Below, in pieces: positions 8,630 to 57,366 of a DNA stretch of 64,000 bases (its first letter is position 1; each line of letters opens with the position of its first letter). The notes beneath the pieces are model-generated. The model had not been told where the DNA came from, ran no database searches, and saw only the letters and a program-made list of their open reading frames with translations. The translations under genes and the position numbers were made by a program. Source of the DNA: Bacteroidales bacterium (lineage in GTDB: Bacteria; Bacteroidota; Bacteroidia; Bacteroidales; P3); NCBI GenBank assembly GCA_031256055.1, contig JAIRRI010000199.1, positions 5,272 through 69,271 of the forward strand, given 5' to 3'.

Positions 8630-8679
8630 TGGTTTGATTTCCCAAAGTTAATACTTTTTTTTCAAAAAACCAAATTTCT

Positions 8680-30600: not shown

Positions 30601-32765
30601 TTCAAACTGACCCAATCGGGCACAATGGAGCTTGTGAGAATTCGGCGCTGACGGCTTGGATAACAAGCATGTCCGCTGCTAATCCGCCTATGTCGTCAAA
30701 TACGTGGATTTGGTGGCAATGCGAGGATTGTCCCGATCAGCAATTGCAAACCATAGATGGAACATCGATATATGACAATAGGTTAAAGTTCATCGTGCCA
30801 AAAGGCAATCCACAAGACAGTATTACGCTTTCGGTTCGCTTTTATGATACAGCCCGTACTTGCGGATGGTCTATGCCGACTATACTTTCTGTACCTATTC
30901 AAAATCAACCTGCCATGCCTGAACTTGTGCAAAACCCATGGCCCTGTATGTATGTTGATCCTTTCGGAATGAGTCTTAAGTTCGACCGTTGGACGGATAT
31001 TTTTACATGGAATACGGTTGGTTATGCTCCTGCGTACAACATAGAAACCACTGAATTCGCAAGTAGTTTGGGACGTTTCATAAATGACTCAATCTACTTC
31101 CCAAATATAGGCGTAGACCCGTTCAGACTGACTGTTACGGCTTCCAATGCTTGCGGATCCAGACGAGATACATTTACGATTACGCCTGCCGATTCCATCC
31201 AGCCTTTACTCTATACGACGTTAGATGATTTTATTGCCGATATGCGCTTCTGTTTTAACAATATTGTGACAGGTAAGTTGAAAGTAGACCCTCAGTATGT
31301 TAACACCTTGCCGACGTTTGTATGGACATTCCCCGAGGATTGGATCATTGTCGATAACTTTATTGACAAGACTGACACAACGAATGTGGTGAGTTTTATC
31401 CCTGGTAGAGACAAAGGAACTATCAGCGTTTGGGCAAATTCCGGAACAGGTTGCGGAGTTACCAATACGATATATTCGCCCGAAGTGGAATCTGCGATCG
31501 TCCTGCGTAACGTCTTTCAATCGACAGATACAACGGTGTACAAAGATACAACGGTTTTCTTTTACATCAACTCTGTTGAATCCATCGGACAGGCAGCACC
31601 TCTTGATCTAAGCCACGCAATTGATTGGATACCTATAGGTCAATCTTGGTCGGAAAACCGATTCAACCTGTCGGAGAATGGTGATACGGCTCATTTAAGG
31701 ATTGCTTATGTGCCCATCGAAACCTTTGTGGTTCAAGTTACGGAAGTAAGTGACGATCTCATTGGACAAGCCTGTATAACAAGAGATACCATCTATTTGG
31801 TTGTTGAAGGGTCTTACAGTTTTGATGTGATACGCAGGGATTCGGTATGTTCAAATTCGGAATTCGAAATGGCGATTGAGCACAAGGGCGGAGAAGTAGG
31901 AAAATACCGACAAGAATGGTACACATTTAATCCTGCTAACGGTCGACATGAACTAATTGGCACCAGTCCTACAGTTCCGGATATCATATTCCGCAACCAA
32001 GAAATAAAATACTATTTTGTTACAGGATTTAATAATTTGCAAGTCAATCCCGAAGGAACAGAATTCGAGTGGATTTCCATTACCGATACATTTTGGATTA
32101 AAGCCATACCGCCGCTTACGGCAACCTTAACAAATGTTGATGTGATTAAAATAGTCAACGGTTGGCAAGAGCAAATTGTACGTGCACTCAACACCGAACA
32201 CGATTCCGTATGGTTAGGCGAGAAACTGCGTTTTGAAGCCGAAGTGACAGACGGAGGGTATCGTCCGAGCGATTATTCCTATTTTATTGACTGGGAAACT
32301 GAAGCCTTCTCACCGACTATATTCCCACGCTCCGATAATTCTCTTATTGCCTTTTCGGATTTGATTTTCAATTCTCAAATTTTCAAGATTGTTGTTTACG
32401 ATCCTAACGCAGATGCCTGTGAAACCAGAGATAGCGTCTTTATAGATATTCGTGTATTGGCAGGAAGTTCAAAAGATTTTGGACCTGTTCCGGGAGCCTT
32501 CACGCCTGTCAGCGGAGGTGTCAATAAAACGTTCATGGTAGGCGTTGATGAAATCACGATTCTCAACCGCTGGGGAGGTATCGTTTACGAAGCCAAGCGC
32601 ACACCTAATCGACAAGGAAAAACAGGTCAAGACGGATGGGACGGTCGCGACCAAAGAACGAACAGAATGGTTGACGGTGGTGATTACTTCTACATTATTT
32701 CCATTTGCAACGATGATAACTGTAATACTAAATCTACGAAAACAGGTGTAGTCTCTGTATTCTAA
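24672..32765 (+). CDS. giant (2697 aa) cell-surface protein with T9SS type B (gliding-motility-associated, CHU_C-type) C-terminal sorting domain
   Basis: It has an N-terminal signal peptide. The last ~90 aa (GAFTPVSGGVNKTF...ILNRWGGIVYE...GWDGRD...GGDYFYII...GVVSVF) fit the type B CTD pattern. The protein is Cys-rich, and I see no obvious internal tandem repeats by eye. Confidence 0.8.
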   Translation: MKMQFVRRFFSALWRSKALRVGYLTLGLLLVGSVGLAQTMNYNILTSGGPLLSSPTFINNQFCLNKTGTDQHTVQIAIERPNDPAFINWTINNANWSVPAQFSPPSTTLLPIEVNGIFYDRLNLILTFNPDIRDVEIGGTFTATWQGGQTTHIATTSFYMLPPTSMVDTIIIVPLPICQDSTIIFIARNYSDDKANLPYGELTYEWKVENINNPITSYVTSQSGTITESSITVSNYQPEYTKVTVQRAFCNIDNLNTLKRERNVDRGIEFNANPPLDTTNSNMYGRRQDQIHRMIWWNDDPGIPNTSKEAFGDWKMTSMNIPVCVNYLNMGGTYGRLQSVSNNLVNNGFAATVLEGDQGPEQAQVAQGFLFFQVGDAPDTSVSYVWIYDTALVERMYVGAGTSWGATDPGVSPRRWASPDPKIRPGGGGGFGDIVFGDTNTFRAIFRIKAHSPERRAELAARYQGDGIEIKVAAIGRNCSDPTTPSGFYQNDTISTGNIGVAWDTTKPMNNFTITKMTTNNFLAEDVWNSSCLETVAYFAINRSSTQTLWDLQSLKDSFNISRFDGGATSGISGYPRFSDSTSTQAGPPLVVRSFVQVSDPTYAIQEQTTTYYKYVVGANQCFHRNVSAISIQGQFASPNDTSWARIHAFDVQKKPLRPQIFDISGSLPRPITPCIPDPENPDEYICGTRLIDTLFICWNPLFDNTGQPMGNPGEYYGVRYLLANDNDSLSSSGSVFNQFGSTRSLISPIGFEFFHGWTTPVDNGSVFGRPRFMGARFHADMTNGPINVRRSEVEIYAQNHNADPEGFLMFAAQGICGISEPVIVPYVLRDTFSERLPVRYTLTPTIDASWQSWDVMADQTFCEGGDIYFQVPGDKYRPLNHTVVCEHPNSWRSYPGTHTPDGEFLQFRVTVGKDIGRVSFHTVNQCGGNTGVYSPEVKPIEYFRLPKNKWEQFWDTVCQDEIVSYVLPFSKDSIINGGGVLGDFYIRFPNDWRILGYNSFGSLPVGPNFDTISQGNLWFFGNASPHINSLNYRVETGVRSGFVEVRWKVLGCDLQPEYYGLPRIRPAWWDSIPVITHIYPKAPDTTGGGWADTVCARTELQLSVKAVGVDTLHEVNNFYAWTLPKEWELLSANEFRQMPDGSFLPIGKTVTVLTAPTKQDVSDTIIVRAYSLCDEEHEPVGTLRWPVWVWDTVPIHNNMIFDIFLDPIGQVQRKPCEDSILGLFVNNLPANDVESVTWYWSTSGNINNPIWTSYNPAWAYDPAADTLFNYWTVYDFELGMEVSDTLKFFLQGGQPHENYKPLHLQVGVNNRCGASRLSMVLEPGQVIPNTAIPVFSAFKDTFCFGEEFVFAIDTSGVNSIFQNADHLIWTLTQNNGANTLFETTIYDSYEFRLRVTDTGVLSVTPRNNCSPDTRSTDSTILEVRRSTFAPSLADFAGWGREVWSSGNLLYVLDTVCTWENFSWKVVPNLNDSELTDFEKFEWMILDDDVTLNTTFFTTSSIANDSVRVALGAKPRNMWVGVAGVRTGCVDMFGNDVVGDTLKIQLVSVDTVQAPSDWRIRISDGSICSGDTRRLCHIYPLNATDNDLPFGYRWYWSANSDPTWQFVGDNTQECVDVVVGQTPGTLNVVSTTGKYCLQPLQNRVPKVTVIDPEPLPELDGITVGYDDVVSDTVCSLAELKIAAVPNFESRVHGYRFTLYQQTIDPRNFNVSPNFSILSDVIQTENTFTFPIEDWAYNKIIVEVRAIDSTTCERPQFSAPLRDTVTIINSPRIALIGDMSPCIDSTIVYTVKRSDPYVTFELDYTNKSETIIVTPTPPDMPDIIVVDFLQSTEPDRDSVQFIFSNIRGYCSDEDYPREDQIYTIYADTFPTINFEVFENRSLTCMDDTLIITVEKYTDYNVYFNYKFSTAAADTIRGWRMIYHSEIYDTVVLLAPIYRSGDSWIDTIRVSAVGSCGTSEAKVLLVPVERRTTYNNILIQTDPIGHNGACENSALTAWITSMSAANPPMSSNTWIWWQCEDCPDQQLQTIDGTSIYDNRLKFIVPKGNPQDSITLSVRFYDTARTCGWSMPTILSVPIQNQPAMPELVQNPWPCMYVDPFGMSLKFDRWTDIFTWNTVGYAPAYNIETTEFASSLGRFINDSIYFPNIGVDPFRLTVTASNACGSRRDTFTITPADSIQPLLYTTLDDFIADMRFCFNNIVTGKLKVDPQYVNTLPTFVWTFPEDWIIVDNFIDKTDTTNVVSFIPGRDKGTISVWANSGTGCGVTNTIYSPEVESAIVLRNVFQSTDTTVYKDTTVFFYINSVESIGQAAPLDLSHAIDWIPIGQSWSENRFNLSENGDTAHLRIAYVPIETFVVQVTEVSDDLIGQACITRDTIYLVVEGSYSFDVIRRDSVCSNSEFEMAIEHKGGEVGKYRQEWYTFNPANGRHELIGTSPTVPDIIFRNQEIKYYFVTGFNNLQVNPEGTEFEWISITDTFWIKAIPPLTATLTNVDVIKIVNGWQEQIVRALNTEHDSVWLGEKLRFEAEVTDGGYRPSDYSYFIDWETEAFSPTIFPRSDNSLIAFSDLIFNSQIFKIVVYDPNADACETRDSVFIDIRVLAGSSKDFGPVPGAFTPVSGGVNKTFMVGVDEITILNRWGGIVYEAKRTPNRQGKTGQDGWDGRDQRTNRMVDGGDYFYIISICNDDNCNTKSTKTGVVSVF

Positions 32766-45017: not shown

Positions 45018-45147
45018 ATCACAAAATTACGCAAAAAAATAAGAAGATTTTAGTATATTAAGTGTTGGTTTCTAACAAAAGATTGTTAAAACGGAAAAAC
45101 TCTTATCTTTGTGTATGAAATTAGCTATTAAAGACCATCTTTCTAAG

Positions 45148-45221
45148 TGGAGAGTAACGGAATCGAACCGTCGACCTTTTGACTGCCAGTCAAACGCTCT
45201 AGCCAACTGAGCTAACCCCCC
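45148..45221 (-). tRNA. tRNA-Ala (anticodon GGC)
   Basis: The reverse complement is GGGGGGTTAGCTCAGTTGGCTAGAGCGTTTGACTGGCAGTCAAAAGGTCGACGGTTCGATTCCGTTACTCTCCA. It carries the G3:U70 identity pair and the anticodon loop CTGGCAG. A -7 box TATCTTTG lies at 45241-45248 on the minus strand. Confidence 0.9.
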
Positions 45222-45396: not shown

Positions 45397-45915
45397 ATGA
45401 GCAAAACCATTTTTTACAACCATACTCCAATAACTCTTGACAAATCGAGTTTTAAATCGCTTGAAAAAGCATTCAAAACGATTAAAGCCGGAGGTGGATT
45501 GGTCAAAAATTCAAAAGGCGAGTTTTTGCTGATTTTTCGAAAAGGACATTGGGATTTACCGAAAGGAAAATTGGATAAAGGTGAAACTATCGAAACTTGC
45601 GCACTTCGCGAAGTACAAGAAGAAACGGGCATTTTAAAGTTGTCGATCGTGAAGAAACTACCCAAAACGTATCATCTTTTCACCGATGTAAACGGTGAAA
45701 TTATTCTAAAAAAATGCTACTGGTTTGAGATGGAAACCGATGATGAACATCCTCTAAAACCTCAACTTGAAGAAGAGATTTCAGAAGCGGTTTGGTGTTC
45801 ACAAGAAAAAATAAATTCTCTCAAACCATTGATGTTTCCAACAATTCGACAATGCTTCGAATACTATTTCTCAACCTCGAAAATCAGTTTTTGGAACCGA
45901 TTATTCAGAAGTTAG
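45397..45915 (+). CDS. NUDIX hydrolase
   Basis: It carries the Nudix box GKLDKGETIETCALREVQEETG. The start is set at the ATG at 45397, just after the -7 box TATCTTTG at 45382-45389. Confidence 0.85.
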   Translation: MSKTIFYNHTPITLDKSSFKSLEKAFKTIKAGGGLVKNSKGEFLLIFRKGHWDLPKGKLDKGETIETCALREVQEETGILKLSIVKKLPKTYHLFTDVNGEIILKKCYWFEMETDDEHPLKPQLEEEISEAVWCSQEKINSLKPLMFPTIRQCFEYYFSTSKISFWNRLFRS

Positions 45916-47289
45916 CTGTCGAAGAGTTAACTCTAAACGTTGACTTGGCAGTTGAAAATAAAACGATTGAATAATATTGTCGGAATCTAACCAAACAGCC
46001 GTTGGATAATCTGAAATACCAAGTGCTTCAAGCGTTTCAAAATCTTTATTGAAACATAGGTAAGTAATATTTCGCAAGTTTCTCGGCTTGTTGCGCAGGC
46101 AACGATTGGGTTCGTAATCGCAATTCACAACATAAAAATCTACCGTATTTCTGAACTTTCCGGCAATATCTTGCAGGGTTCTTATTTCTGCATCGCACGA
46201 CTCGCAAAGACCATTCACAAATAAAATATATTTGTAATTTGACGATTTGGAGAAATCGTAAATCGTATTTCGCTCCGGATCCCAAAACCTGAAATTGGCT
46301 TGATGAATGCCTGGTTCATAGCGCACTAAGGTTCGAATAATAGCATCTGCCAAGTCCACATGTTCGGGGAATTTGGTTGTGGTTTCTATCGTGTGTAGCA
46401 ATCTCAAAATAGATAATTTAGAAAAATCGCTGTTGTTGTACATCTCTCTTAAGCCTAATAAAAACACGAATTCGCGAAATTTTTCGTTTTGCAAAGTGGT
46501 GTCTCGTCCCAACGAATCCAAAATAGCCGACAAATCATCAGCGCGATTAATTTGATCAATAAATTCATTGCGATTATACCTTACTTGGTTCGGAAAATAA
46601 GCCAAGTAATATTCTGTGATAAAGTCTGCAAATCCTACGTTATTATAGAGAATTGGCTTGTCTTGAAGATAGGTAAAAAACAGATTTGCCGGTGATATTA
46701 AATTGAAAATACGTTCCATATCTGCAAGGGCATAAGTCATGTAGGCATTGAAGTATTGGTGTCCGGAGTAGGCAAATGTTTCCTCAATTTGCCTTCTGAA
46801 GTGGTTGTAAGCTTCGCGAGATATACCGTCGTTGCTATAGTAGTTTAGGAGAAAATCATCATATATATTTTCGAATCGCCAAATGAGTCGGTTGAGTTCG
46901 TTCGAATCGGGTTCTTCAAAACGGTAAGATAAATACTGATCCAGTATTTGCGGATTGATCCGTTCGTCAATTCGAAAATCGAATGGATTGTAGATAATAC
47001 GATAGTTTTCACCAGGCTCAAGATAGATGTAAGTTTGATAAAAATCAATTTTGATGATGGCTCTTTGTGTTTCAAAAAATTCGGCTGTTAGTTGAAAACA
47101 ACCGTTTTTGTCAATCAATTGCTCATCAACTTTCCATTGAAATTTAGTGATTGCATCTTCCAAATACAGGCGTGCAATGCGGTTTTCAGCGCCTTTGGCG
47201 CAAGCATTAATTGTTGTTGTTTCTACGTTTTGCGCTTGTGCGAAACATACACCTGCGCATAGCAATAAGAAAAGGGAAATTTTTTTCAT
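45901..47289 (-). CDS. secreted thioredoxin-fold (TlpA/redoxin-like) protein with large N-terminal domain
   Basis: It has a signal peptide (MKKISLFLLLCAGVCFAQA) and a C-terminal LFVNGLCESCDAE CxxC in a thioredoxin-like context. I trimmed the start to the ATG at 47289, because the -7 box TAACTTTG at 47305-47312 overlaps the track start. Confidence 0.45.
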   Translation of the reverse strand: MKKISLFLLLCAGVCFAQAQNVETTTINACAKGAENRIARLYLEDAITKFQWKVDEQLIDKNGCFQLTAEFFETQRAIIKIDFYQTYIYLEPGENYRIIYNPFDFRIDERINPQILDQYLSYRFEEPDSNELNRLIWRFENIYDDFLLNYYSNDGISREAYNHFRRQIEETFAYSGHQYFNAYMTYALADMERIFNLISPANLFFTYLQDKPILYNNVGFADFITEYYLAYFPNQVRYNRNEFIDQINRADDLSAILDSLGRDTTLQNEKFREFVFLLGLREMYNNSDFSKLSILRLLHTIETTTKFPEHVDLADAIIRTLVRYEPGIHQANFRFWDPERNTIYDFSKSSNYKYILFVNGLCESCDAEIRTLQDIAGKFRNTVDFYVVNCDYEPNRCLRNKPRNLRNITYLCFNKDFETLEALGISDYPTAVWLDSDNIIQSFYFQLPSQRLELTLRQLTSE

Positions 47290-47396
47290 GGGTGGGTTTT
47301 TTTGCAAAGTTACAAAAAAAAATACAAATGGAATACTTTTTTTAATTTTTTTTGCAAATATTTAACTTCGTTGAGCTCGCACTGGTCTTTATAACT

Positions 47397-47493
47397 AATT
47401 CCATAGTCAAAGTTAAGGTTTTTTGTGCTCTGTTCTCTGTGTACGGAGTTAGTTAGGAAGTCCACAGACTAAAATAACTATAATCTTTTTCAT
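47397..47493 (-). pseudogene. vestige of an immunity-like gene 3' end plus its downstream flank
   Basis: 47397-47463 aligns at about 75% identity with 53753-53818, the last codons and 3' flank of the 53804-54469 gene. A 14-codon ORF (47449-47493, MKKIIVILVCGLPN*) ends with the same GLPN-stop. Confidence 0.6.
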
Positions 47494-47508: not shown

Positions 47509-48150
47509 CTATCGTTGGAAACAGTAACGTTTACGAGTGTGTGCGTCAGAAGGCACTGTTAATTCTCTAACAAAATAATATAGATTTTTCAGTAAATCAT
47601 CATTTGGAAATGTCATAGCCGGCAACCTATATTCTCCATATCTTTTTTTGTTTTCATCTTTCAGCACAAAGTATGTAGAAATTGGAGTGCCATATATGTT
47701 AGTTTCTTTTGCTTCAACATACGTTACAAAATCAGTGCTATACAGGTCCGTGCTAAACGCATTTTCTACCGCTTGCTTGTCGCTTTTTAAACGTTCTAAA
47801 CATTCTCGTTTTTGCTTTGAAAGAAATCTCTTTGCTTTCAGCTTCACAATTTCTTTGTTGATATTATTGTAACTGTTTCGCTTTTCTAGCTTCACTACAT
47901 TACAAAATTCGTCTATGTGCACAACATATTCCTTGTAATTGTTATTTTCTTGAATTATAACATAATATTCTCTATCTAAATGTGAATATAGTATTTTTTT
48001 ACCAGATATTGTATCAAATTTAGATAGCACAACATCTGCTTTTGCGCGACTCACCATAGCCAAAGAATCGTTTTCTATCTTCCAGTCACACTGAGCATAA
48101 CAAAAGCTCGCAAAAAAGAGAGCTATGCAAATTGTTACAATTTTTCTCAT
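47509..48150 (-). CDS. signal-peptide protein, candidate immunity protein for the upstream HExxH protein
   Basis: It has the signal peptide MRKIVTICIALFFASFCYAQ and no recognisable domain. It lies directly downstream of the toxin-like gene. The start is set at 48150, because a -7 box overlaps the track start at 48180. Confidence 0.45.
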   Translation of the reverse strand: MRKIVTICIALFFASFCYAQCDWKIENDSLAMVSRAKADVVLSKFDTISGKKILYSHLDREYYVIIQENNNYKEYVVHIDEFCNVVKLEKRNSYNNINKEIVKLKAKRFLSKQKRECLERLKSDKQAVENAFSTDLYSTDFVTYVEAKETNIYGTPISTYFVLKDENKKRYGEYRLPAMTFPNDDLLKNLYYFVRELTVPSDAHTRKRYCFQR

Positions 48151-48177
48151 TATAATTATTTTTCCCTTACTGACCGA

Positions 48178-48185
48178 CAAAGATA
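48178..48185 (-). promoter_or_regulatory. -7 box (TATCTTTG) dedicated to the immunity-like gene
   Basis: TAnnTTTG on the minus strand, 28 nt upstream of the ATG at 48150. Confidence 0.5.
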
Positions 48186-48203: not shown

Positions 48204-48235
48204 AACAAGGCGACCTTGAAAAAAGTCGCCTTGTT
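48204..48235 (-). terminator. hairpin (11-bp stem AACAAGGCGAC/GTCGCCTTGTT) followed by a T/A-rich tract, between toxin-like and immunity-like genes
   Basis: Perfect stem read from the sequence. On the minus strand it is followed by TTTATTATTATTATTTT. Confidence 0.55.
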
Positions 48236-48262: not shown

Positions 48263-49390
48263 TCATTTTGTTATTGGAAGTTGGTATGGATCTCCCAAAT
48301 TACCATATCCGGCATGACCTCTCCCATCCCATCTTGGCATACCCAATATTCGTCTAATTAAATTATCAGTACGAACTGCATTTGCATTGTTTTCATCACC
48401 GAATATACCTCTTGCGGCAGGAATGCCATGACCAAAAACTTCATGTCCAAAAATTACAGCTCTTTTTTTAGGTTCTAATCCTCTCATTATAAAAAAATGC
48501 AAGTTTTCTTCTGTTAGTATACTTAGCCCATCTCCTCCTTCATTTTTTATCCAACTAGCATGTACGTTATCATCTTTAAATAATGTTTTAGCCGTCTCTT
48601 CGCCCCATTTTTTAATCTGTTCTTTTATAAATAATTTTGCACCTTCCGAAGAAATATTGCTTCCTTCTGTAACATATTCGACCTTGAATATTTTTTCTGA
48701 ATTAATGGTGTTTACCACCATGTTAATATAAGTTGCTTCATTCGGATCTTGTATTTTTGCTAATATAGGCGCTAATTCATCGTTGTTGATTTTTTTTAAA
48801 GTTTTTCCTTCTGTTACTATCAATGCACGAACATCTGAAAATTTATTGTTTGCTAATACTCTATGTATATCATCTTTCATTTTCTTTGCATCATCTGCAG
48901 ATATTCCCCAAATTCCACCATTGTTTTCCTTTAATACATTTTTGCCTTCTACATTTTTACCTTCGTAATATGCCGTAATTTTAACCACTCTATTTGTGTT
49001 ATTCGGATTTTTCTTGTCTTTTTCAAATTTGAACGCATTTTTTATAATTAAAGTATCGTCTTTTTCTTTAGTTTTTGTACGTTCGGTTTCAAAAATCTTT
49101 CCATTTATTTCCTCTATTTTGATTTTGATTTTATCGCCTCTTTGAAAGCCTTTGGTTTCTATTTTCACACTTACCCATTTATTAGAAAGTGTTTGGTTTA
49201 TTTCTTTTTTCGTGTTGCCATTATCAACCCATTTCACAGAAATAATATCTTTTTCTTTTTTACCGACATTTTTTTCTTCTTTACCAGCATTTTTGAGTGT
49301 TTCTTCCGCTTCCTCTTCTGCCTTAGTGTCAATAAAACGTTGGTACTTCCCATCGGTTAATTCTAAAGCTATTTCTTCGTATGTTTTCAT
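48263..49390 (-). CDS. HExxH zinc-metallopeptidase-like protein (toxin-like, here called P1) with the shared N-terminal leader
   Basis: 375 aa with no signal peptide. It has the N-terminal leader KTYEEIALEL...YQRFIDTKAEEEAEE, a beta-rich middle, and a C-terminal VIFGHEVFGHGIP (HExxH). Confidence 0.6.
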   Translation of the reverse strand: MKTYEEIALELTDGKYQRFIDTKAEEEAEETLKNAGKEEKNVGKKEKDIISVKWVDNGNTKKEINQTLSNKWVSVKIETKGFQRGDKIKIKIEEINGKIFETERTKTKEKDDTLIIKNAFKFEKDKKNPNNTNRVVKITAYYEGKNVEGKNVLKENNGGIWGISADDAKKMKDDIHRVLANNKFSDVRALIVTEGKTLKKINNDELAPILAKIQDPNEATYINMVVNTINSEKIFKVEYVTEGSNISSEGAKLFIKEQIKKWGEETAKTLFKDDNVHASWIKNEGGDGLSILTEENLHFFIMRGLEPKKRAVIFGHEVFGHGIPAARGIFGDENNANAVRTDNLIRRILGMPRWDGRGHAGYGNLGDPYQLPITK

Positions 49391-49424
49391 AATATTTTAT
49401 TTTTTAATTGTTAAACAAAAACAA

Positions 49425-49454
49425 AAGAGTGCCTGCCCTGCTGCAAGCACTCTT
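49425..49454 (-). terminator. GC-rich hairpin (AAGAGTGC/GCACTCTT) followed by a T-rich tract, downstream of the 1172-aa gene
   Basis: 8-bp stem. On the minus strand it is followed by TTGTTTTTGTTT. Confidence 0.55.
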
Positions 49455-49467
49455 CTTGCAGTTTAGG

Positions 49468-52400
49468 TTAGTTGTTTTTTTCGTTACCATTACCTAATTC
49501 GGCGTTGCTGCCTTTTATTGCATCGGCGTCAAGCACCGGCAACCCTTCGGCATCTATTGCCACACCGCCTCTTTGCAAGGCTATCAGGTTGGTCGGCAGC
49601 ATGGTTTCCCAAGAATCCTCTATTTCGTATTCCTGTTCTTTGAGCTCATCTACAATAGATAGATACAGCGAGTCGCCAATAACCGGCATTGCGCCTCCAT
49701 CCCATATCTGCCCTTTTGTCATATAGAGCGCTACTGCATCTTCGAAGCCCGGTCTCACCGTTACAACTACTCTTGCCATTCCCGCTTGCATGAAACTGCG
49801 GAACGTAGCATCGTCGCTGTCGAATTTGTATAGGTTTGCCCACTCATTTTTGTTTGCCCAGTAATAAGGATAGAACGAGTAACTCATCAATTCCCAATCA
49901 AATGCCTGCTCCATAAATTTTACAAAACTGCTGTAGTCATCCATTTTTTTGGTTAAATTAACTTGATGTTCGGTTAATGTCGTCCCACTGTACATTTCTA
50001 ATCCAAATTTTTTCACGGAATTTGGATTTTTGTGGTCTAGAAGATAGGAAATGCAGTTTTTTCTTAATACGGTTTGTTCTATCTGACGGTAAAACATTGG
50101 ATTGCTGTCTAATATTTGTACGCCTATCTCCTTTTTTTCAGCAAGAGATTGATTGTAGGTAGCCAACTGACGCTCGTATCCTTCCATAATTCTTTCAAAA
50201 GTTTCTCTTTTCCATTGCTCTATTTTTGTATCATCTAATTTAAGATTAATAGAAAAGGCAATACCAAAAGACATATAATTCAAAAGACTATAGCTGAAAG
50301 AAATACTATCTTTATATCCAACCAAAGAATATTTATCATTCCAATTTCTGCCAATCAGGTTAAATTCTGTAAGATCCTTCCTTATTAGGTTTTCGGTATG
50401 AGCATACAGTCCAATATCACCGAATGCTATGTTTACAGCGTGTCGTTGTCCAGAATTGTCCTGATCCCATTTGGCAGAAAATTTCAGTGAAGCATCCACC
50501 GTGATATAACCTTCGGGCAATTGAATGTCTGCTGTACCTTCATGCATCTCGTTGGCTCCTGCTTCTACTCCTGCAAAAGATTTACTCACACTTAAAGTTT
50601 CTTTTGGATATTCATTAACCGAAGCACCGTATTTTGCAGCCAACTCTTGATAGTTATTTTTAGTAATTTTGGTAAAATCAGAGTATTTATCTCTCGGGTC
50701 TATTGGTTCTTCCAACGTTACAGTATTACTATCACTATTACTGCTCACTGTCATAGCAATTTGATGCAGTTTGCCCGGCTGAGGTACCATAAATTCATAC
50801 ATCAACCGCTTGCCGTAATTGAAAATACGGTTTTTGTAAATAGCATTGATAAACCTGTATACACCTGAAACGTGTTCGCCGCTTTTTGTGTTATCAAAAA
50901 GATGTTTGTTTGTTTCCGTAAACTCTTCGGTCGTACTTACCGTTTTTTCATTTTTCACTCTTGCAAGAATACGCTCCGAAGCTCGCTGTGTAATTTCTTT
51001 AGCCTGACTAATCGCCTGTCTGTTGCTCTCCTGTTTTGAAACACTTGATGCGTAACTCGCTCCGGCGTTGATAGTTGCAGCCCCCCATTTAGCACTCACA
51101 TTAGCGTAAGCGGAAACTTGCCGGTCTTCCTGCAATAGTTTTGAAATTTCGTTTTGCATTTCAAACCTTTCGGCAGAAGAGGTATCGGTTATTTTTTCGG
51201 TTTCTATCTCTTGGCTGTTTGTTTCTACGATTTGTCTTTGATGGAATCGTTTTGTAGATTTCTCTCTGAGTTCGCGAGCCATTACATTTTCTATATGTGC
51301 CACCTCACCTGCTTCGTATCGGCATACTTTCGATACTACTTTTTGGTAATCGGCAATACCTAATCTGCGGTATCCAAATGTATTCGGTTGAAAATCTTTT
51401 TCTGTATCAAGTTTCTTTGTCCCAAAATTTTCCAACCTGCCACCAGCCGGAGTCGCGGAATTGATACTTGTTGCAAATGCTTGTACTTGTCCATTTGTAA
51501 ACGTAATTTTGCCTGACATACCTGTTGCTTGAGTAGAAGCCGGCAGGGTGTTGTTAAACAGATTGCTTAAAGTCACCACATTTCCATTAGACGATGAATT
51601 AAAATAACTGTCAGTAATGCCGCCGCCGTTTTTGCTGCCGTTATCTAAAGTATATGCAATTTTTTGTACATCGTAGCCGTTTGGCAATAGAATATTCATA
51701 CACATGCCGACATTGCCATTTATCAACTTACTGCTGCAAATTTGGAATTTGAACAGATCTTGCGCAGGAACAAAATTGCCTGCTTGAATGGCAGTGTCGC
51801 CAAAAACTACTATCTGTTCTGAAGTTTTTATTTTTTTTACAGCCTGCTGTTCTACATTTTCTAATTGACTTGTCAAAACTTGCTTTAATTTAGTACAAGA
51901 TGCAATATTTTTCAATTCCCCGACCTGAGTTGAAAGTATAGCAAGAGAATCAGCTGAAAGTTTTGTCTGCACTGTTGACATATCCGGTTCCTGTGGATAT
52001 TCAAATACAAATTCTGGCAGTTCGGGATATTCCACATCCGGCTGGTTGTAAGGTCTATCGCGGAGGTCGTGTTGAGAGCTGCCATACTTTGCGTCTAACT
52101 GGTTGTCAATCTCCCTTAACTGCTCATTATATGTCTTTTGATAGTTAGAAATCAGTTCTTTTATTTTTCCGTGATTCTCTTTTTGAAATTCCGCCAATTC
52201 TTTTTTATATGCTATTTCCCCTTCTTCGCGATGATTAGCCTCTATTTCGTTCAGTTCAGACAAAATACCTTCAATATTAGCTGTTGCAATTCTTGCTTCC
52301 TCTATCTGTTGTGCATCCACAAGTTCTTTGGGTACAATACCGTCATACTCTCCTTCCTCGTCTGCAATTGTGGCATTTTGCATTAATGCAAGTTCGTCAA

Positions 52401-52986
52401 AGAGTTCAGCCGGCAGCACTACCCTTGCCGAAAGCAGTTGTTTTGTTTCTTCTTCATCACGAAGTTCAGTAAAAACATCTTTGTTTCTCAGAATATTTTG
52501 CAAAACAAGCAACTGCATAACCGCCTCTTTTACATAAAAATCCTTTTGCGTAAGCACCTGATAATACAAATTATCCCAAAGTTCAACCTCGTCAGAAGGT
52601 TTCAGCTCTCCTAACCCGTCTAATTTTTCTACTAAATCAGTTGAATTAAGAATAGCTCTGTTTCGGGTAATCCAGTCGGCTAACTCAAGATGTTGCGGAT
52701 ACAAATCTGCTATTTCTTTTTCATTTTGAAAAGCAGGAAAGGTTTCTGCTGCAGAAACCATTGTATCCCATTTAGTAGAATTTTTTTCTTTTTCATTTAA
52801 AGGGAGAACTATTGTATCCCCTTTAAGGTTTTTCGTTCCATTCTGTGCTGCAGGATAAAAAACTCCGCCAACAGGGTCAGGATTTAAAACAAAACGTCTG
52901 TCTTGATTTTCTTTTTTTGTTAATTCAGGGCTTCGCAAACTTACTAAGCGGAATAACGTGTTTTGATTGTTTAGGTCTTGATTCAT
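49468..52986 (-). CDS. 1172-aa protein of unknown function (no signal peptide, no TM, acidic, coiled-coil-rich N-terminal third)
   Basis: It is a long uninterrupted ORF with coding-like composition. I recognise no catalytic or structural family. Notable motifs are YEAGEVAHIENVMARE and YSFYPYYWANKNEW...ARVVVTVRPGFEDA. Confidence 0.8.
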   Translation of the reverse strand: MNQDLNNQNTLFRLVSLRSPELTKKENQDRRFVLNPDPVGGVFYPAAQNGTKNLKGDTIVLPLNEKEKNSTKWDTMVSAAETFPAFQNEKEIADLYPQHLELADWITRNRAILNSTDLVEKLDGLGELKPSDEVELWDNLYYQVLTQKDFYVKEAVMQLLVLQNILRNKDVFTELRDEEETKQLLSARVVLPAELFDELALMQNATIADEEGEYDGIVPKELVDAQQIEEARIATANIEGILSELNEIEANHREEGEIAYKKELAEFQKENHGKIKELISNYQKTYNEQLREIDNQLDAKYGSSQHDLRDRPYNQPDVEYPELPEFVFEYPQEPDMSTVQTKLSADSLAILSTQVGELKNIASCTKLKQVLTSQLENVEQQAVKKIKTSEQIVVFGDTAIQAGNFVPAQDLFKFQICSSKLINGNVGMCMNILLPNGYDVQKIAYTLDNGSKNGGGITDSYFNSSSNGNVVTLSNLFNNTLPASTQATGMSGKITFTNGQVQAFATSINSATPAGGRLENFGTKKLDTEKDFQPNTFGYRRLGIADYQKVVSKVCRYEAGEVAHIENVMARELREKSTKRFHQRQIVETNSQEIETEKITDTSSAERFEMQNEISKLLQEDRQVSAYANVSAKWGAATINAGASYASSVSKQESNRQAISQAKEITQRASERILARVKNEKTVSTTEEFTETNKHLFDNTKSGEHVSGVYRFINAIYKNRIFNYGKRLMYEFMVPQPGKLHQIAMTVSSNSDSNTVTLEEPIDPRDKYSDFTKITKNNYQELAAKYGASVNEYPKETLSVSKSFAGVEAGANEMHEGTADIQLPEGYITVDASLKFSAKWDQDNSGQRHAVNIAFGDIGLYAHTENLIRKDLTEFNLIGRNWNDKYSLVGYKDSISFSYSLLNYMSFGIAFSINLKLDDTKIEQWKRETFERIMEGYERQLATYNQSLAEKKEIGVQILDSNPMFYRQIEQTVLRKNCISYLLDHKNPNSVKKFGLEMYSGTTLTEHQVNLTKKMDDYSSFVKFMEQAFDWELMSYSFYPYYWANKNEWANLYKFDSDDATFRSFMQAGMARVVVTVRPGFEDAVALYMTKGQIWDGGAMPVIGDSLYLSIVDELKEQEYEIEDSWETMLPTNLIALQRGGVAIDAEGLPVLDADAIKGSNAELGNGNEKNN

Positions 52987-53069
52987 TTTTTTAATGTTTA
53001 ATGATTTTTAATTTTTTTTTAACTGATTTTAATTTTTTTTGATTGCGCAATGTTTTTTTAGTTATGAAT

Positions 53070-53118
53070 TATGGTTGCCGAGCTTTGGTCACTGAGCTTG
53101 TCGAAGTGCCGAAGCATG
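53070..53118. repeat. GC-rich intergenic repeat (..CCGAGCTTTGGTCACTGAGCTTGTCGAAGTGCCGAAG..)
   Basis: It stands out against the AT-rich island. It is related in wording to the element at 6377-6424 and is flanked by AGTTATGAAT on both sides. Confidence 0.55.
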
Positions 53119-53120
53119 AG

Positions 53121-53615
53121 TTATGAATGTATTTTCTTTTTTAAGAATGGGAAAATAATGAGAAAAACGATACTGATTAGGATTAGCCAAAATGTTAAAC
53201 CCAAACCAAGCTTTCCGCCGACTTGTTTGTCGGTTTTGGTAATTGTTTGCTCGGTGCTGTTTTCATGGGTTTGTTTATTTTGATTGGTTTCAATGTTGGT
53301 TTGTATATTGATTTCGGTTTGCGTATTGGTTTTGGTTTGTTTTTGTGTGCTTGTTGTTGTGCGTTGTTTGAGAGGGGGTGCTTTGGTGGTTGGGTCAATC
53401 GGTTTGTCTGTATCAAAAATTTCAACAACAGTGGTAATTTCAACATCTGTTTCGGTATTTGTTGTTTGGGCGATTTGAACCGCTTGAATTGTTGTTATGG
53501 TTGTTTGCTCTATTTCCGTTTTTGTGGTTTCCTGCGCGGTTTCGCTTATGCGTTTAACTGAACCGCAACCGCACAGCAACAAACTAATGAGTAGTATGGT
53601 AAATATTTTTTTCAT
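53121..53615 (-). CDS. T/Q-rich lipoprotein with C-terminal transmembrane anchor (unimolecular-spanin-like architecture)
   Basis: 164 aa with an N-terminal lipobox (LLLCGCGS), a low-complexity T/Q/E/N middle, and the C-terminal TM LGLGLTFWLILISIVFLIIFPFL followed by KKK. Confidence 0.55.
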   Translation of the reverse strand: MKKIFTILLISLLLCGCGSVKRISETAQETTKTEIEQTTITTIQAVQIAQTTNTETDVEITTVVEIFDTDKPIDPTTKAPPLKQRTTTSTQKQTKTNTQTEINIQTNIETNQNKQTHENSTEQTITKTDKQVGGKLGLGLTFWLILISIVFLIIFPFLKKKIHS

Positions 53616-53803
53616 TTGCTATTTTTTTTGATTTTTTTGATAATAAATGTAACGCTATAGGCATGGCTTAGCCAAGGCATGGGTTATAAACCCGCGCTTG
53701 CAGAGAGGCAGTATCGGTTTCGAGACAGCCTCTATTTGCTTTTTGAATGTGAAATTCCGAGTCGGAGATGAGAGTTTTTAGGCTCTATTCTTTGTAGTCG
53801 GAA

Positions 53804-54469
53804 TTAGTTAGGAAGTCCTGTCCATTCCTGCTCTTTATTCAATAATAATTCAAACTCCAGAGGAATAGAATTTATTCTAATAAGTGAGTCAAAATAAGTA
53901 TAACCTGATACATTTTCCATCCTTACAAGGATGAAAGATTTGTCATAAAAGATTCTATGTAAAGGAGCATCTTCCGCTAACCCAATTTTATAATAAAACT
54001 CATAGGTTTCAATATAATTATTTTCACCTAACTTTATTTTTTTTTCTCCGATAAAACAATGAGTTTTTGCAGCAAAGCTGTTGTCAATAAAGTAGTCGTT
54101 TGGTTCAACAGGAGGAATCCATACTATACAAGAATCTACATACTTTGTTGATAAATATAAACTCTTTGTACCATCCGCTTTTTTCGGCACAAACATACAG
54201 TTCTTCGTTAATATGAAATAGTCAATTTCTTTTTTTGTTATTTCTTTTGCGAAATCACTATATCTATACGTTATTTGTTTTCTTCTATTGCCTTTGTCAA
54301 TAGTTTTGGTTGCCAGATAGGAAGTAGGGTTTGAACTTCCAAAAGTATAATTTTCATAATAGTGTTCTTTTGTTATAGTTCGCTCTTTACAAGCAGTAAA
54401 TAACAAAAGAAAAATAGAAATAAATAGAGACCTATTTATTACGTAGGTGTGAACGTAGTGAGTCATCAT
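53804..54469 (-). CDS. lipoprotein-signal protein, candidate immunity protein for P2
   Basis: 221 aa with the hydrophobic leader FISIFLLLFTAC. It overlaps the 3' end of P2 by 38 nt. I recognise no domain. Confidence 0.45.
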   Translation of the reverse strand: MMTHYVHTYVINRSLFISIFLLLFTACKERTITKEHYYENYTFGSSNPTSYLATKTIDKGNRRKQITYRYSDFAKEITKKEIDYFILTKNCMFVPKKADGTKSLYLSTKYVDSCIVWIPPVEPNDYFIDNSFAAKTHCFIGEKKIKLGENNYIETYEFYYKIGLAEDAPLHRIFYDKSFILVRMENVSGYTYFDSLIRINSIPLEFELLLNKEQEWTGLPN

Positions 54470-55475
54470 GGCTTTTTTTTGCTTTATCTATATTTGTGGA
54501 ATTAAAAAACTTTTTTAACTGCAAAATATAATTGTTAAATTTTTTAAGTTGTGGATGTGTTCCTTTAAAGTAACTTGTATGTTCTGCCTCTCCGCGTCCG
54601 CGTATTTGTGCCAGTTTATTATATGCGTCCTTACCCCCTTTGTTATATGCGTCTATAAATTGAGGAGCCTGATTATCCATATGAAGAAATGCTTCATGTC
54701 CAATAACTATTGCATAAGATTCTTTACCCAAACCATCCTTGTTATCATTCATAGGATCGACATTTAACAAAATATCAAATTCTAAATTATTTTTTCCTGC
54801 TCTATGGCGAAACTCCCCTTCACTTCCAGAGTTTTGGTCTTGTTCAATAATATTAAGGCTATGGTTGGAGTATTTTCCATTTTCTTTAAATTCGACACTG
54901 CCGATTTTTTGCCCTTTTGTTGCATATTGGGATAAGAATGCGTATCCTTCTTTTGTTTTAGCAAAGATTTCTAATAGTTCTGCCGTTTGATTATTTAAAT
55001 GTCCCAGATGGTATTTTCCCCATTCATTTCCGTCATGTACATAATGCCATATACGAAGATTTCCTTTAACAGAATTTGACACACATTCCAACTCAAACGG
55101 CTCAGAGTCTGCCGACACTCCATCGCATACAATAGTTACAGTGTATTTAGATTTTGGAGTTATTAGGTTTTGAGGAACAGGTACGGTTATTTGCTTCTGA
55201 CCCTTGGGGTTTATAAAGTAAGATATAAAAGGTATACGCCTCCCATTAACCAAAGCCGTAGCTCTGTCTGTTTTCAAATTTTTTGCAGTAACGTTGAACG
55301 TTACTTCGACTGTTTTAGCTTCCTTTTCAGAAGGTTTACATCCGATATATTTTATAGAAAGTCCTTTGGGGTTGTTTTTTGCTTCTTCCGCTTCTTCCTC
55401 TGCCCTTCTGTTAATAAAGCATTGGTACGTAGGGTTTAATTTTAAAGCTATTTGTTCGTATGTTTTACTTGGCAT
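54432..55475 (-). CDS. HExxH zinc-metallopeptidase-like protein (toxin-like, here called P2) with the shared N-terminal leader
   Basis: 347 aa with no signal peptide. It has the N-terminal leader KTYEQIALKL...YQCFINRRAEEEAEE, an Ig-like beta-rich middle, and VIGHEAFLHMD (HExxH). Confidence 0.6.
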   Translation of the reverse strand: MPSKTYEQIALKLNPTYQCFINRRAEEEAEEAKNNPKGLSIKYIGCKPSEKEAKTVEVTFNVTAKNLKTDRATALVNGRRIPFISYFINPKGQKQITVPVPQNLITPKSKYTVTIVCDGVSADSEPFELECVSNSVKGNLRIWHYVHDGNEWGKYHLGHLNNQTAELLEIFAKTKEGYAFLSQYATKGQKIGSVEFKENGKYSNHSLNIIEQDQNSGSEGEFRHRAGKNNLEFDILLNVDPMNDNKDGLGKESYAIVIGHEAFLHMDNQAPQFIDAYNKGGKDAYNKLAQIRGRGEAEHTSYFKGTHPQLKKFNNYILQLKKFFNSTNIDKAKKSHDDSLRSHLRNK

Positions 55476-55515
55476 GATATTTTATTTTTTTAATTGTTAA
55501 ACTGTTTTTTTATAA

Positions 55516-55647
55516 CTAATTCAACACACAAAGATAAGAATTTTTATTTGATTTAAACAATTTATTCTGCAAATTCTTTCGCGTGTTTGTTGTTGTGCGT
55601 TGTTTGAGGGGGGGCGCTCTGGAGATCGGCGCAATCATTTTTTTCAT
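55516..55647 (-). pseudogene. internally deleted vestige of the u-spanin-like lipoprotein gene
   Basis: This 43-codon ORF (MKKMIAPISRAPPLKQRTTTNT...) retains the start region and about 35 nt near-identical to 53351-53386 (APPLKQRTTT). It has lost the lipobox and the TM. Confidence 0.6.
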
Positions 55648-55964
55648 TTGCTAATTTTTTTGATTTCTGTTGTGAGTTGATCGATTTGTTTTTGTAAATT
55701 TTCTACTTTGTCAGCAAGTCTTGAATTTTCTAACCACAAGGAGCGGTTTTTTGCTTGTTCTTTAACGAGCTTGTCAATAGTTTCAGTGTTATGGTGGCTC
55801 AAATCTGTGATTGATTTTAACAACGGTGCAATAGCTTTGTTGATAAGGTCTAAATCGGTTGCTTTTTTTTCGCGCGGAGTTTTGATTTTGGAAAACAACC
55901 AGCCCAAAGCACCTGCAACAAATGTGATTGCTGTATATTTTAATATGTCAAGTGCTAATTCCAT
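55644..55964 (-). CDS. small membrane protein, N-terminal TM + coiled coil (i-spanin-like or holin-like)
   Basis: 106 aa with the TM segment YTAITFVAGALGWLF followed by a heptad-rich coiled coil. Its start abuts the endolysin stop (TAAATG). Confidence 0.5.
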   Translation of the reverse strand: MELALDILKYTAITFVAGALGWLFSKIKTPREKKATDLDLINKAIAPLLKSITDLSHHNTETIDKLVKEQAKNRSLWLENSRLADKVENLQKQIDQLTTEIKKISK

Positions 55965-56447
55965 TTAGATAATAGTTTTTATTTCTTGAGAAATTCCGAT
56001 TGACCTCAACCACGTTTGCACATCGAACGAAGGACAAGCCTTTTTTGCAACTTCGTTGTGTCCGATAATGCGAACGGTTGGATGTTTGGCGTGAAAATCT
56101 TTGACGTATTTTTCGAGACTTATGCGTTGCGCAGCGGTTCGCGTATCTTTTGCAGATTTACCATCGGCTGTTAAACCACCAACGTAAACAATATGACGAC
56201 TTATGTCGTTGTATCCAACCGCGCCGTTGGTAATTTCCCACGCATCTACAAAAGCATCATCGTTGTTTTCAACAAGTCTTTCAATTGTTCCGTCCAAATG
56301 GAACATATCCGTATAACCGACTTGTTTCCAACCGTTGCCTTTTGGTGGAGGCGAGGTGTGCCACGTTCTAATATCTGAGGCTTTCACGTTTTGGTTTTCG
56401 GGCGTGGCTGTACAGTGGATTATTAGGTATTTTAGAGCTTTTTTCAT
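55965..56447 (-). CDS. N-acetylmuramoyl-L-alanine amidase (Amidase_2/PGRP, T7-lysozyme-like endolysin)
   Basis: 160 aa with the motifs IIHCTATPE, GYTDMFHLDG, IGHNEV and KACPSF. There is no signal peptide. Confidence 0.85.
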   Translation of the reverse strand: MKKALKYLIIHCTATPENQNVKASDIRTWHTSPPPKGNGWKQVGYTDMFHLDGTIERLVENNDDAFVDAWEITNGAVGYNDISRHIVYVGGLTADGKSAKDTRTAAQRISLEKYVKDFHAKHPTVRIIGHNEVAKKACPSFDVQTWLRSIGISQEIKTII

Positions 56448-56625: not shown

Positions 56626-57366
56626 ATGGCTGATTTTCAAATTAATGAAAGGTTAGAAAAATTTATTAAAGAAGGATTAAAAATTACTCCTTTTGCTTTT
56701 TCAAAGTCTATAAATGATACTGGCGGTGTAAAAATATCAAAAATAATTAACAAAAAATACGGTGTTTCTAATAAAATATTAGATTTAGTGTGTGAAGCAC
56801 ATCCGGAAGTGAATCGTAGTTGGTTACTTACCGGAGAAGGGAATATGCTGAAATCCGATCCGTCCAAGCAACCCATTCAATTTTTCGATCCCGAAAATGC
56901 ACCGCATAACAAGCGATTGATACCGCTCTACGATGATGTCCTAACAGTAGGAGGAACGGATACCGTAGCACTAACCGAGGCTAATAGAGCGCCTGCCGAA
57001 TGGATTGATCCGGGCGATTGGTTTAAACCTGCAACACACGCCATTCGTCATTATGGTGAAAGTATGGTGGAATATCCAAAAGGCTGCATTCTTGCTTTGA
57101 AAGAAGTGCAAGATCGCCGTTTGGTTGTTCCGGGACAGGATTACGTTATTCAAACAAGCGAATATCGCGTAACTAAAAAAATACAACTTGGCAACAGTCC
57201 CGAATACATCATAGCACATAGCACAAATTACGAACGCTATGATGACCATTCGCTAATCCACCAACCATTCAATATCTATTGGGAGTTAATTACCAATATT
57301 TATGAGGTGCTTGGCTATGTTGTAAAAAAAGGTAGCGGAACAATTGTACTTAGTAATCAAAGATAG
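56626..57366 (+). CDS. cI/LexA-type repressor (N-terminal phage-repressor HTH + C-terminal S24 peptidase)
   Basis: 246 aa. The HTH region ends in the typical NRSWLLTGEGNM. The C-terminal domain has GESMVEYPKG (Ser nucleophile) and a downstream Lys (RVTKKIQ). Confidence 0.8.
   Translation: MADFQINERLEKFIKEGLKITPFAFSKSINDTGGVKISKIINKKYGVSNKILDLVCEAHPEVNRSWLLTGEGNMLKSDPSKQPIQFFDPENAPHNKRLIPLYDDVLTVGGTDTVALTEANRAPAEWIDPGDWFKPATHAIRHYGESMVEYPKGCILALKEVQDRRLVVPGQDYVIQTSEYRVTKKIQLGNSPEYIIAHSTNYERYDDHSLIHQPFNIYWELITNIYEVLGYVVKKGSGTIVLSNQR

Follow-up and report, generated by a model that had tools for sequence, protein, structure and literature searches.

Polymorphic toxins are classed by the N-terminal domain that decides their exit route from the cell, and the present view of antagonism among Bacteroidota is dominated by type VI secretion systems (T6SS) and a few diffusible toxins. 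Here we describe a locus in a 64-kb stretch of DNA from a Bacteroidales bacterium (GenBank assembly GCA_031256055.1, contig JAIRRI010000199.1, positions 5,272 to 69,271; 64,000 nucleotides, hereafter the window), in which two HExxH-containing effectors, P1 and P2, begin with a common leader of about 30 residues and are encoded beside a large protein of 1172 residues. No description of a leader/large-protein system was found in the literature. At a probability of about 0.5, we read the locus as a repressor-controlled, lysis-released two-part polymorphic toxin, in which the leader would dock interchangeable effectors on a conserved carrier.

The closest described systems are the polymorphic toxins and Rhs proteins of Bacteroidota (PMC3482391), which likewise have a constant N-terminus, swappable C-terminal toxins, and an immunity gene immediately downstream. 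Cassette arrays, relics of displaced cassettes, and the occurrence of the same toxin-immunity pairs on Rhs tips are further likenesses to the systems of that survey (PMC3482391). Unlike the Rhs toxins, the constant part here is only about 30 residues, sometimes followed by an immunoglobulin (Ig)-like domain, with no Rhs repeats, and the large conserved protein is encoded as a polypeptide of its own, not joined to the toxin. The trafficking classes of the 2012 survey comprise the type II, type V, type VI, and type VII secretion systems (T2SS, T5SS, T6SS, and T7SS), the Photorhabdus virulence cassette (PVC), TcdB/TcaC, PrsW, and MuF (PMC3482391), and the leader and the large protein fit none of them, nor are they covered by Pfam, NCBIfam, PHROGs, or PADLOC.

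Large toxin components without a signal peptide, encoded beside an endolysin/membrane-protein cassette and a repressor, are also a feature of type 10 release, as for the Tc toxin of Yersinia entomophaga (PMC10847048), and of SOS-induced colicin and pyocin release. As in type 10 systems, an endolysin-type peptidoglycan hydrolase lacking a signal peptide is present beside the cargo in the window, and the likeness to colicins, pyocins, and Tc toxins extends to immunity proteins that protect kin. In contrast to type 10 and colicin systems, the holin and spanin are putative here, lysis genes are absent from many related loci, and the toxin is a separate tagged protein. The locus differs from colicins and pyocins also in that receptor-binding, translocation, and cytotoxic domains are not found in one polypeptide, the cytotoxic part being a protein by itself. 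A CI-like repressor is present, for which SOS cleavage is putative. No homology to Tc, colicin, or pyocin proteins was found in Pfam, NCBIfam, PHROG, and PDB searches.

A short N-terminus that is unrelated to toxicity and marks effectors beside a delivery component is familiar from the packaging signals of extracellular contractile injection systems (eCIS) and PVCs, and from the MIX, FIX, RIX, and WHIX domains of T6SS cargo. Unlike eCIS and PVC effectors, those described here have no linked sheath, tube, and baseplate operon, the exceptions being three contigs in which prophage tail genes stand on the opposite strand, and a contractile-injection operon (sheath, tube, baseplate, and AAA ATPase) is absent from the window. 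No DUF4157 or other Pfam marker is found, and the partner is a single uncharacterised protein. The MuF toxins of temperate phages (PMC12226406) resemble the system in that toxin-immunity modules are tied to prophage regions, with release or delivery linked to the phage life cycle; they differ in that the present proteins have no MuF domain, most of their loci lie outside prophages, and the toxin is not fused to the large protein.

Results

P1 and P2 have a leader and a 5' segment in common

P1 (48263-49390, minus strand, 375 aa) consists of the leader (aa 1-30), a Lys/Glu-rich linker, a beta-rich middle, and an HExxH toxin domain at about aa 160-375. P2 (54432-55475, minus strand, 347 aa) has a helical leader (aa 1-34), an Ig-like sandwich (38-123), and an HExxH toxin domain (140-346). 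Their N-terminal residues are MKTYEEIALELTDGKYQRFIDTKAEEEAEE and MPSKTYEQIALKLNPTYQCFINRRAEEEAEE, respectively. When the two proteins were compared by BLASTP, the leaders matched with 13 of 23 residues identical (E 0.003). A second, weak match (8/18 identical, E 0.022) surrounded the HExxH motif, found as GHEVFGH in P1 and GHEAFLH in P2, and all other parts were unrelated. A first-pass annotation of this DNA had claimed a common N-terminus of about 30 residues, a near-identical 5' segment, and divergence beyond the leader. The open reading frames (ORFs), the BLASTP results, and the upstream sequences, which are as it quoted them, agree with all of this, BLASTP adding only the weak HExxH stretch. 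The beta-rich middle that it gave to both proteins was seen in P2, the protein modelled, as the Ig-like sandwich (AlphaFold2, AF2; predicted local distance difference test score, pLDDT, 87), and for P1 stands as proposed.

The 5' segment is present as a 26-nt copy before P1 (49391-49416, minus strand; GTTTAACAATTAAAAAATAAAATATT), which is kept in the orthologous loci L119 and L029 (related loci are designated by L and a number), and as a 27-nt copy before P2 (55476-55502, minus strand; GTTTAACAATTAAAAAAATAAAATATC). The window contains exactly two copies of the 17-mer GTTTAACAATTAAAAAA, as compared with 0.01 expected from shuffles. The DNA similarity of P1 and P2 begins at exactly -27 and fades after about +90 relative to each ATG. 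Of the codons in the coding part of this patch, 17 are identical, 2 differ by synonymous changes, and 9 by non-synonymous changes. Because the homology is confined to this interval, and in view of the codon differences, a recent common DNA origin is indicated, and the patch is read as a recent duplication or gene conversion and not as convergence.

A 14-bp terminator-like hairpin (49423-49456, minus strand) lies between the large gene and P1 and is kept in L119 and L029. These two loci and the window have in common the hairpin and the TTAACAATT...AAAA...TAAATATT-ATG junction that follows it, although the leaders of L119 and L029 are of another type; identity of their large proteins to that of the window is 74% for the L119 C-terminus and 63% for L029. 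Since hairpin and untranslated region (UTR) are kept together, the 26-27-nt segment is taken to be the native translation-initiation region of the first effector slot, that is, of the junction between the large gene and the first effector. Analogous hairpins separate the large gene from the first effector in most loci, and in L017 hairpin and UTR are repeated ahead of the second cassette. The P2 copy of the segment is without the hairpin and stands behind P2's own Bacteroidota -7 box, TATCTTTG, found by reading the sequence about 50 nt 5' of the P2 ATG. A second, strong 14-bp terminator-like hairpin (48204-48235, minus strand) lies between P1 and its immunity gene, an odd site for a terminator if these two genes need to be co-expressed.

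The leader is a family-wide, separable module beside the large gene

The first-pass annotation had called the leader private to P1 and P2, which proved wrong. The same type occurs in at least 4 other protein clusters, as MASKTFEELALAKNPLYQRIIDMKAREEAEKA, and is a divergent local version of a family-wide module whose typical form is MTKEQLArWRxLGFxFDdFYDtiA. The leader reads MTKEQLARWRxLGFxFDDFYDTIA in Flavobacterium, MTSEKLAEFRDKGMLLDPKFDRLA and MTREDLERYKAMGVHV in Bacteroidales-type contigs, and MSKKMFDLLKDNGIQIDD in L010, and the window's EEIALELTDGK-YQRFIDTKA can be aligned with all of these.

In 15 genome loci and five assembly loci, the large gene is nearly always followed directly by a gene that opens with a related leader peptide, and in metagenome loci, too, such a leader stands at the start of the next gene. 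A hidden Markov model of the leader matched 26 of the 1,497 ORFs in 103 loci. The 26 ORFs are spread over 18 loci, 8 of which have two leader copies, and all are on the strand of the large gene. Sixteen follow the large gene directly, at <200 nt downstream, 6 are found further downstream, 3 are upstream, and 1 is beside a truncated large gene; the three upstream are P2 of the window and one each in its two closest relatives, L029 and L030. When the first 19 loci and the window were clustered all against all, the only widely conserved families were the large protein and the leader-bearing proteins, and two small immunity-like families recurred in 3-4 loci. Among reverse look-ups from leader-bearing proteins, P0213 directly follows a large gene; in the others the contigs were too short to decide or had no large gene within reach. 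The link to the 1172-aa protein that had been guessed from the window alone thus reappears in other genomes as tight genetic linkage. Leader-bearing proteins of other loci have GH19, GH108, DUF6402, and PG_binding_3 domains as cargo.

The leader and the toxin domains also proved separable from one another. Residues 1-134 of P2 match nine clusters with differing C-termini, residues 140-345 match >140 clusters with differing N-termini, and the two sets of proteins are disjoint. The AF2 model of P2 has helices at 6-13 and 15-34, followed by the sandwich and by an alpha/beta domain over 140-346. The P1 ortholog P0091 (41% identity over 88% of P1) retains the middle and toxin parts of P1 and starts with the common leader type, MFTTEKLEKYRKLGIPIDDG, and L030 has a second leader variant, GNSIFYFEQEAGIDS, ahead of the same Ig-like domain. 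Within a locus, leaders are far more alike than the rest of the proteins; in L029 they are identical over 45 aa, and the same was seen in L017, L031, L004, L010, and L011. By gene order and domain composition, the leader is a module that is strictly syntenic with the large gene.

No Pfam or NCBIfam match was obtained for the N-terminal parts of P1, P2, and 17 related effectors, and none of the recognised trafficking domains (PAAR, VgrG, LXG/WXG, TPS, MuF, PrsW, SpvB, PVC-metallopeptidase, and TANFOR) was found there, in agreement with the earlier statement that the constant part resembles no known trafficking domain. A profile of the N-terminal module (alignment A4) found only nine short fragments in a 5.8-billion-protein index, a search limited by the word index, and yielded no list of cargo domains.

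The toxin domains recur on Rhs tips and travel with candidate immunity proteins

Sequence comparison showed both HExxH domains to be polymorphic-toxin domains that are also found at the tips of Bacteroidota Rhs proteins. Over its C-terminal 58%, P1 has 42-52% identity with the C-terminal ends of RHS-core proteins found in Prevotella, Mangrovibacterium, and Myroides, and the P1 family profile aligns with TccC/Rhs core ends just ahead of the toxin. Among the >140 clusters matched by the C-terminal part of P2 are 1169-2027-aa Rhs/DUF6443 proteins, which end in these ~200 residues directly after a DPxG motif. YD repeats, an RHS core, and the DPxG motif are present in the Rhs homologs, whereas none occurs in P1 or P2 themselves.

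The P2 toxin domain appears to be remotely related to Peptidase_M91, which 7 of 57 members of its family match (best E 2e-6), and the P2 model contains three strands followed by a long helix that holds HEAFLH. Foldseek with the full-length P2 model returned Ig-fold matches only, the Ig-like domain dominating. For the P1 family no Pfam or PDB relative was found; E317 and H321 are invariant in it, and H316 is present in >=90% of sequences. A peptidase fold is putative in both proteins. In L013, a Chitinophagales locus, the partner is a leaderless 841-aa protein with a YwqJ deaminase domain.

Each effector gene is followed by a gene for a small exported protein, as had been claimed. The candidate P2 immunity protein, imm221 (53804-54469, minus strand), is a 221-aa lipoprotein by its signal, and its gene overlaps the end of P2 by 38 nt. 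The candidate P1 immunity protein, imm223 (47509-48180, minus strand), has a signal peptide and comprises 223 aa from the listed TTG or 213 aa from the first ATG. The product of an ORF directly after a Rhs-orphan P1-like toxin in L026 is 47% identical to imm223 (E 1e-59), and imm221 has homologs in L116 (E 4e-27) and in L117 (E 7e-17), encoded by ORFs overlapping the ends of P2-like toxins on Rhs tips. Because they travel with these toxin domains, the 221-aa and 223-aa exported proteins are identified, by homology, as the candidate immunity proteins. With Rhs-tip toxin domains, a common leader, and co-travelling immunity genes, the polymorphic-toxin layout first proposed for the locus is well founded. 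Since the immunity proteins are exported and the cargo is wall-degrading, the toxins probably act in the periplasm of other cells.

The large protein has relatives in several phyla

The proposed carrier or delivery component is the 1172-aa protein encoded at 49468-52986 (minus strand), whose homologs are of about 1,150 residues. It had no match in Pfam, NCBIfam, PHROGs, PADLOC, or PDB sequences, including a profile search against PDB. Its 88 cluster-level homologs, from Bacteroidales, Flavobacterium, and Chryseobacterium, are all annotated as hypothetical, and a metagenome scan added 378 relatives; these hundreds of relatives are from Bacteroidota of soil, freshwater, and gut. The large protein, P1, and P2 all lack a signal peptide and any transmembrane (TM) segment. 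In the AF2 model (pLDDT 62), the N-terminal region is helical and is accompanied by a helix of 80 residues and by two beta-sandwich (jelly-roll) domains. Local Foldseek matches were to the satellite tobacco mosaic virus capsid, Cry domains, and phage tail/J proteins, and in BFVD to tail and host-specificity proteins. An encapsulin-like shell was ranked low, there being no HK97 or encapsulin match.

A tblastn search of plasmids with residues ~535-1140 found hypothetical proteins of 26-30% identity in Tsukamurella, Ensifer/Sinorhizobium, Bacillus thuringiensis, Cupriavidus, Streptomyces, and the haloarchaeon Natronorubrum, and the C-terminal half had a weaker match in Aulosira (24%). Relatives of this half thus span Actinomycetota, Bacillota, Pseudomonadota (Alpha- and Betaproteobacteria), cyanobacteria, and a haloarchaeon. 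In each of the four cross-phylum loci examined (of L109-L113), an uncharacterised gene follows the large-protein relative, and in Natronorubrum the second gene after it encodes a patatin-like phospholipase. No homolog was present in 50,697 phage records. Four IMG/VR contigs have the large gene next to prophage tail genes or behind genes for tail fibres and lysis, and the sheath, tube, and tape-measure genes of L021, L023, and L024 are a prophage tail module on the opposite strand.

In distant clades of the family (among the metagenome loci L033-L108), recurrent downstream partners are a 520-aa protein starting MSNIGKIIRVNALPP, proteins of 600-900 aa starting MSTNNFPLVWN..EADDGLLGSLF or MYKINELIEFLRLDRRYDEA, and a 115-aa protein with an LFGSRGR motif that looks nucleotidyltransferase-like by eye. 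A common "D-D-F-Y" motif in these partners was considered and dropped, as 4 of 41 matched.

A repressor and lysis-type genes adjoin the operon

Divergent from the operon is the gene for a 246-aa protein like phage CI-type repressors (56626-57366, plus strand; PHROG phrog_4, E 6e-11). A GESMVEYP motif is visible in it; no Pfam or PDB match, including to LexA/CI, was obtained, and any S24 autocleavage is putative. Ten related loci have homologs, which in every case are transcribed divergently and lie upstream of the large gene by 214-403 nt. The 160-aa product of 55965-56447 (minus strand) is an endolysin-type N-acetylmuramoyl-L-alanine amidase (Amidase_2, E 2e-9; phrog_822, lysis, E 8.5e-51) with neither signal peptide nor leader, and amidase homologs lie directly 5' of the large gene in L057, L059, and L062.

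Two small membrane proteins accompany the amidase. A 106-aa protein (55644-55964, minus strand) with an N-terminal TM helix (hydropathy peak at residues 3-21) and a coiled coil may by its topology be holin-like or i-spanin-like; it matches phrog_1009 (E 3e-7) and, weakly, an Rz-like spanin. A 164-aa Thr/Gln-rich lipoprotein (53121-53615, minus strand), with a lipobox and a C-terminal TM segment (hydropathy peak 2.8 at 136-158), may by its topology be unimolecular-spanin-like. Neither protein has homologs in the other loci.

Genes for leaderless enzymes recur on the large gene's strand, encoding an M15 peptidase in 17 loci, a patatin in 18, an amidase in 4, and another lysin in 6, so that an M15 peptidase, amidase, or other lysin is found there in about 28 related loci. 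A leaderless pair of M15 peptidase and patatin-like phospholipase was seen, again on this strand, in L017, L021, L023, L024, L112, and about 13 metagenome loci, either immediately upstream of the large gene or where the cassette array ends downstream.

Gene order and cassette footprints in the window

The order on the minus strand after the repressor is amidase, 106-aa protein, lipoprotein remnant, P2, imm221, 164-aa lipoprotein, large gene, hairpin, P1, hairpin, and imm223. The remnant (55577-55666, minus strand) is of a second copy of the 164-aa lipoprotein gene; its start region is 97% identical to 53605-53634, and 65 nt of it are 80% identical to 53341-53405. It marks the insertion site of the P2 cassette and indicates an older order of endolysin, TM protein, lipoprotein, and large gene, into which P2-imm221 was inserted. 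A 59-nt repeat is present at the last codons of imm221 (53760-53818, minus strand) and again in intergenic DNA 46 nt after imm223 (47405-47463, minus strand), the copies being 76% identical and having an exact 15-mer, GGACTTCCTAACTAA, in common. Because this repeat recurs after imm223, both cassettes have common 5' and 3' flanks. In L012, an ORF at 8300-8746 joins an M15-peptidase-like N-terminus to a duplicated C-terminal fragment of the large protein (LYLSIVDELKEQEY...LPTQLIALQ); it just precedes the third effector cassette and looks like a recombination scar.

The G+C content is 0.31-0.38 over 45-57 kb, compared with about 0.41 on both sides, which suggests an acquired island. A tRNA-Ala(GGC) gene (45147-45221) lies at the edge of the region, and no integrase and no att-type repeats were found flanking the island next to it. 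The P1 cassette is followed on the same strand by the gene (45901-47307) for a protein of 468 aa that has a signal peptide and whose C-terminus is weakly thioredoxin-like (E 0.01), and upstream of the region is a 2697-aa ORF (24672-32765, plus strand).

Discussion

Genetic coupling of leader and large protein, the identity of the toxin and immunity proteins, the footprints of duplication, and the repeated presence of the repressor and of wall hydrolases that lack the leader are what the comparisons above show at the level of genes. Beyond these, we infer docking of the leader on the large protein, a carrier function, release by lysis, and the target compartment. In the reading that we prefer, P1 and P2 would be interchangeable antibacterial effectors of one locus, each with a periplasmic immunity protein encoded just downstream. 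The leader would be the local version of an N-terminal adaptor module that marks effectors beside the ~1,150-residue protein in one clade of Bacteroidota, and it would dock each effector non-covalently on that protein, which would serve as the common carrier for target binding, translocation, or both. In this genome the effector-carrier complex would be released by the adjacent phage-type lysis module of amidase, membrane protein, and spanin-like lipoprotein, under control of the divergent CI-like repressor, and the released effectors would act in the periplasm of neighbouring cells. The 5' segment would have been copied with the leader as the P2-immunity cassette was installed upstream, and the conserved 5' and 3' flanks may allow cassettes to be exchanged by recombination.

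Several observations weigh against this proposal. The link between leader and large protein is predicted from gene linkage, and leader genes on the short contigs L114, L115, and L118 could not be tied to a large gene. The partners in distant clades of the large-protein family (30-37% identity) have other N-termini, so the leader is not universal and is confined to one clade. The homogenisation of leaders within loci could be accounted for by gene conversion alone. The parts of the 1172-aa protein that are most conserved (~523-760 and 955-1172) were poorly modelled by AF2, and assignment of a fold was abandoned, since Foldseek against PDB and BFVD gave only local jelly-roll likeness with template modelling (TM) scores <0.1. 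The 106-aa and 164-aa proteins are assigned by topology only. The repressor and lysis genes are absent from the closest relatives, L029 and L030, and from most Flavobacterium loci; because the lysis genes are not kept in the closest relatives, lysis release may be specific to this locus, or the adjacency coincidental.

No rival explanation accounts for the whole pattern as well as the docking of effectors on a lysis-released carrier does. It is unlikely that the effectors are cargo of an apparatus encoded elsewhere, most plausibly a Bacteroidota T6SS, for which the leader would be a loading signal and the large protein a cytoplasmic adaptor or chaperone, or a spike-associated part. Wall hydrolases and Rhs-shared toxins with periplasmic immunity are typical T6SS cargo, and adaptor genes usually lie directly 5' of effectors, as the large gene does. 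However, across about 100 loci no conserved gene for a T6SS, a type IX secretion system (T9SS), or another apparatus lies within 8-10 kb, nor were VgrG, Hcp, PAAR, or adaptor genes found within that range, and no marker domains were detected; moreover, homologs of the large protein's conserved half are known from Gram-positive bacteria and from a haloarchaeon, and the locus is associated with a repressor and lysis-type enzymes. We consider it quite unlikely that leader and UTR are merely a recombination footprint, a frame for swapping toxin-immunity cassettes, with no role in docking or targeting and with the large protein an unrelated neighbour. The low synonymous divergence of the P1/P2 patch would fit such a frame, as would the common 3' flank, the lipoprotein-gene remnant, the 3'-end fragment of the large gene ahead of the third cassette in L012, and the repeated hairpin and UTR in L017. 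Yet the leader is kept as protein across Flavobacterium, Chryseobacterium, and Bacteroidales loci despite divergence of the DNA, is predicted to form two helices, and is constantly linked to one large family, whereas a pure recombination site needs no translation. The roles of recombination frame and docking element are not mutually exclusive.

A phage origin of the whole arrangement appears most unlikely. If the locus were a prophage remnant, the large protein would be a virion protein of the tail-tip or host-specificity kind, and the leader would attach wall-degrading enzymes to the virion for infection. The four IMG/VR contigs in which the large gene neighbours genes for sheath, tube, and tape measure or follows those for tail fibres and lysis, the best BFVD matches (to tail and host-specificity proteins, with very low TM-scores), and the endolysin and CI-like repressor of the window are in keeping with this; but most loci are without phage genes nearby, the phage records contain no homolog, and Rhs-type toxin cargo comes with dedicated immunity proteins that virion lysins do not need. 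The least likely reading is an intracellular module for abortive infection or defence, in which the large protein would sense infection and switch on envelope-degrading effectors lethal to the producer. A two-gene core of large protein and variable partner does occur across phyla, including the patatin partner in the archaeon, and the locus is near prophage and mobile regions. Against defence, PADLOC returned nothing for the large protein and a weak match only for P2 (E 8e-4), and exported lipoprotein immunity, together with toxin-immunity pairs common to exported Rhs toxins, indicates attack from outside.

We therefore retain the docking of effectors on a released carrier as the preferred reading, and the locus may represent a polymorphic toxin system with a new split delivery-associated module. 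More tentatively, and with some doubt, it could constitute a new self-contained delivery route, in which a carrier takes interchangeable effectors by way of a short docking helix at their N-terminus and leaves the cell through regulated lysis, with a carrier core shared by several phyla and archaea. Were the leader to dock cargo on a released carrier, interbacterial antagonism in Bacteroidota would gain a delivery route, and polymorphic toxins a new trafficking class with a modular plug-in cargo interface. The leader could help annotate many effector-immunity pairs now listed as hypothetical, and could offer a small, natural, swappable tag for loading proteins on a carrier. The cross-phylum core with its variable partner suggests a broader two-gene system.

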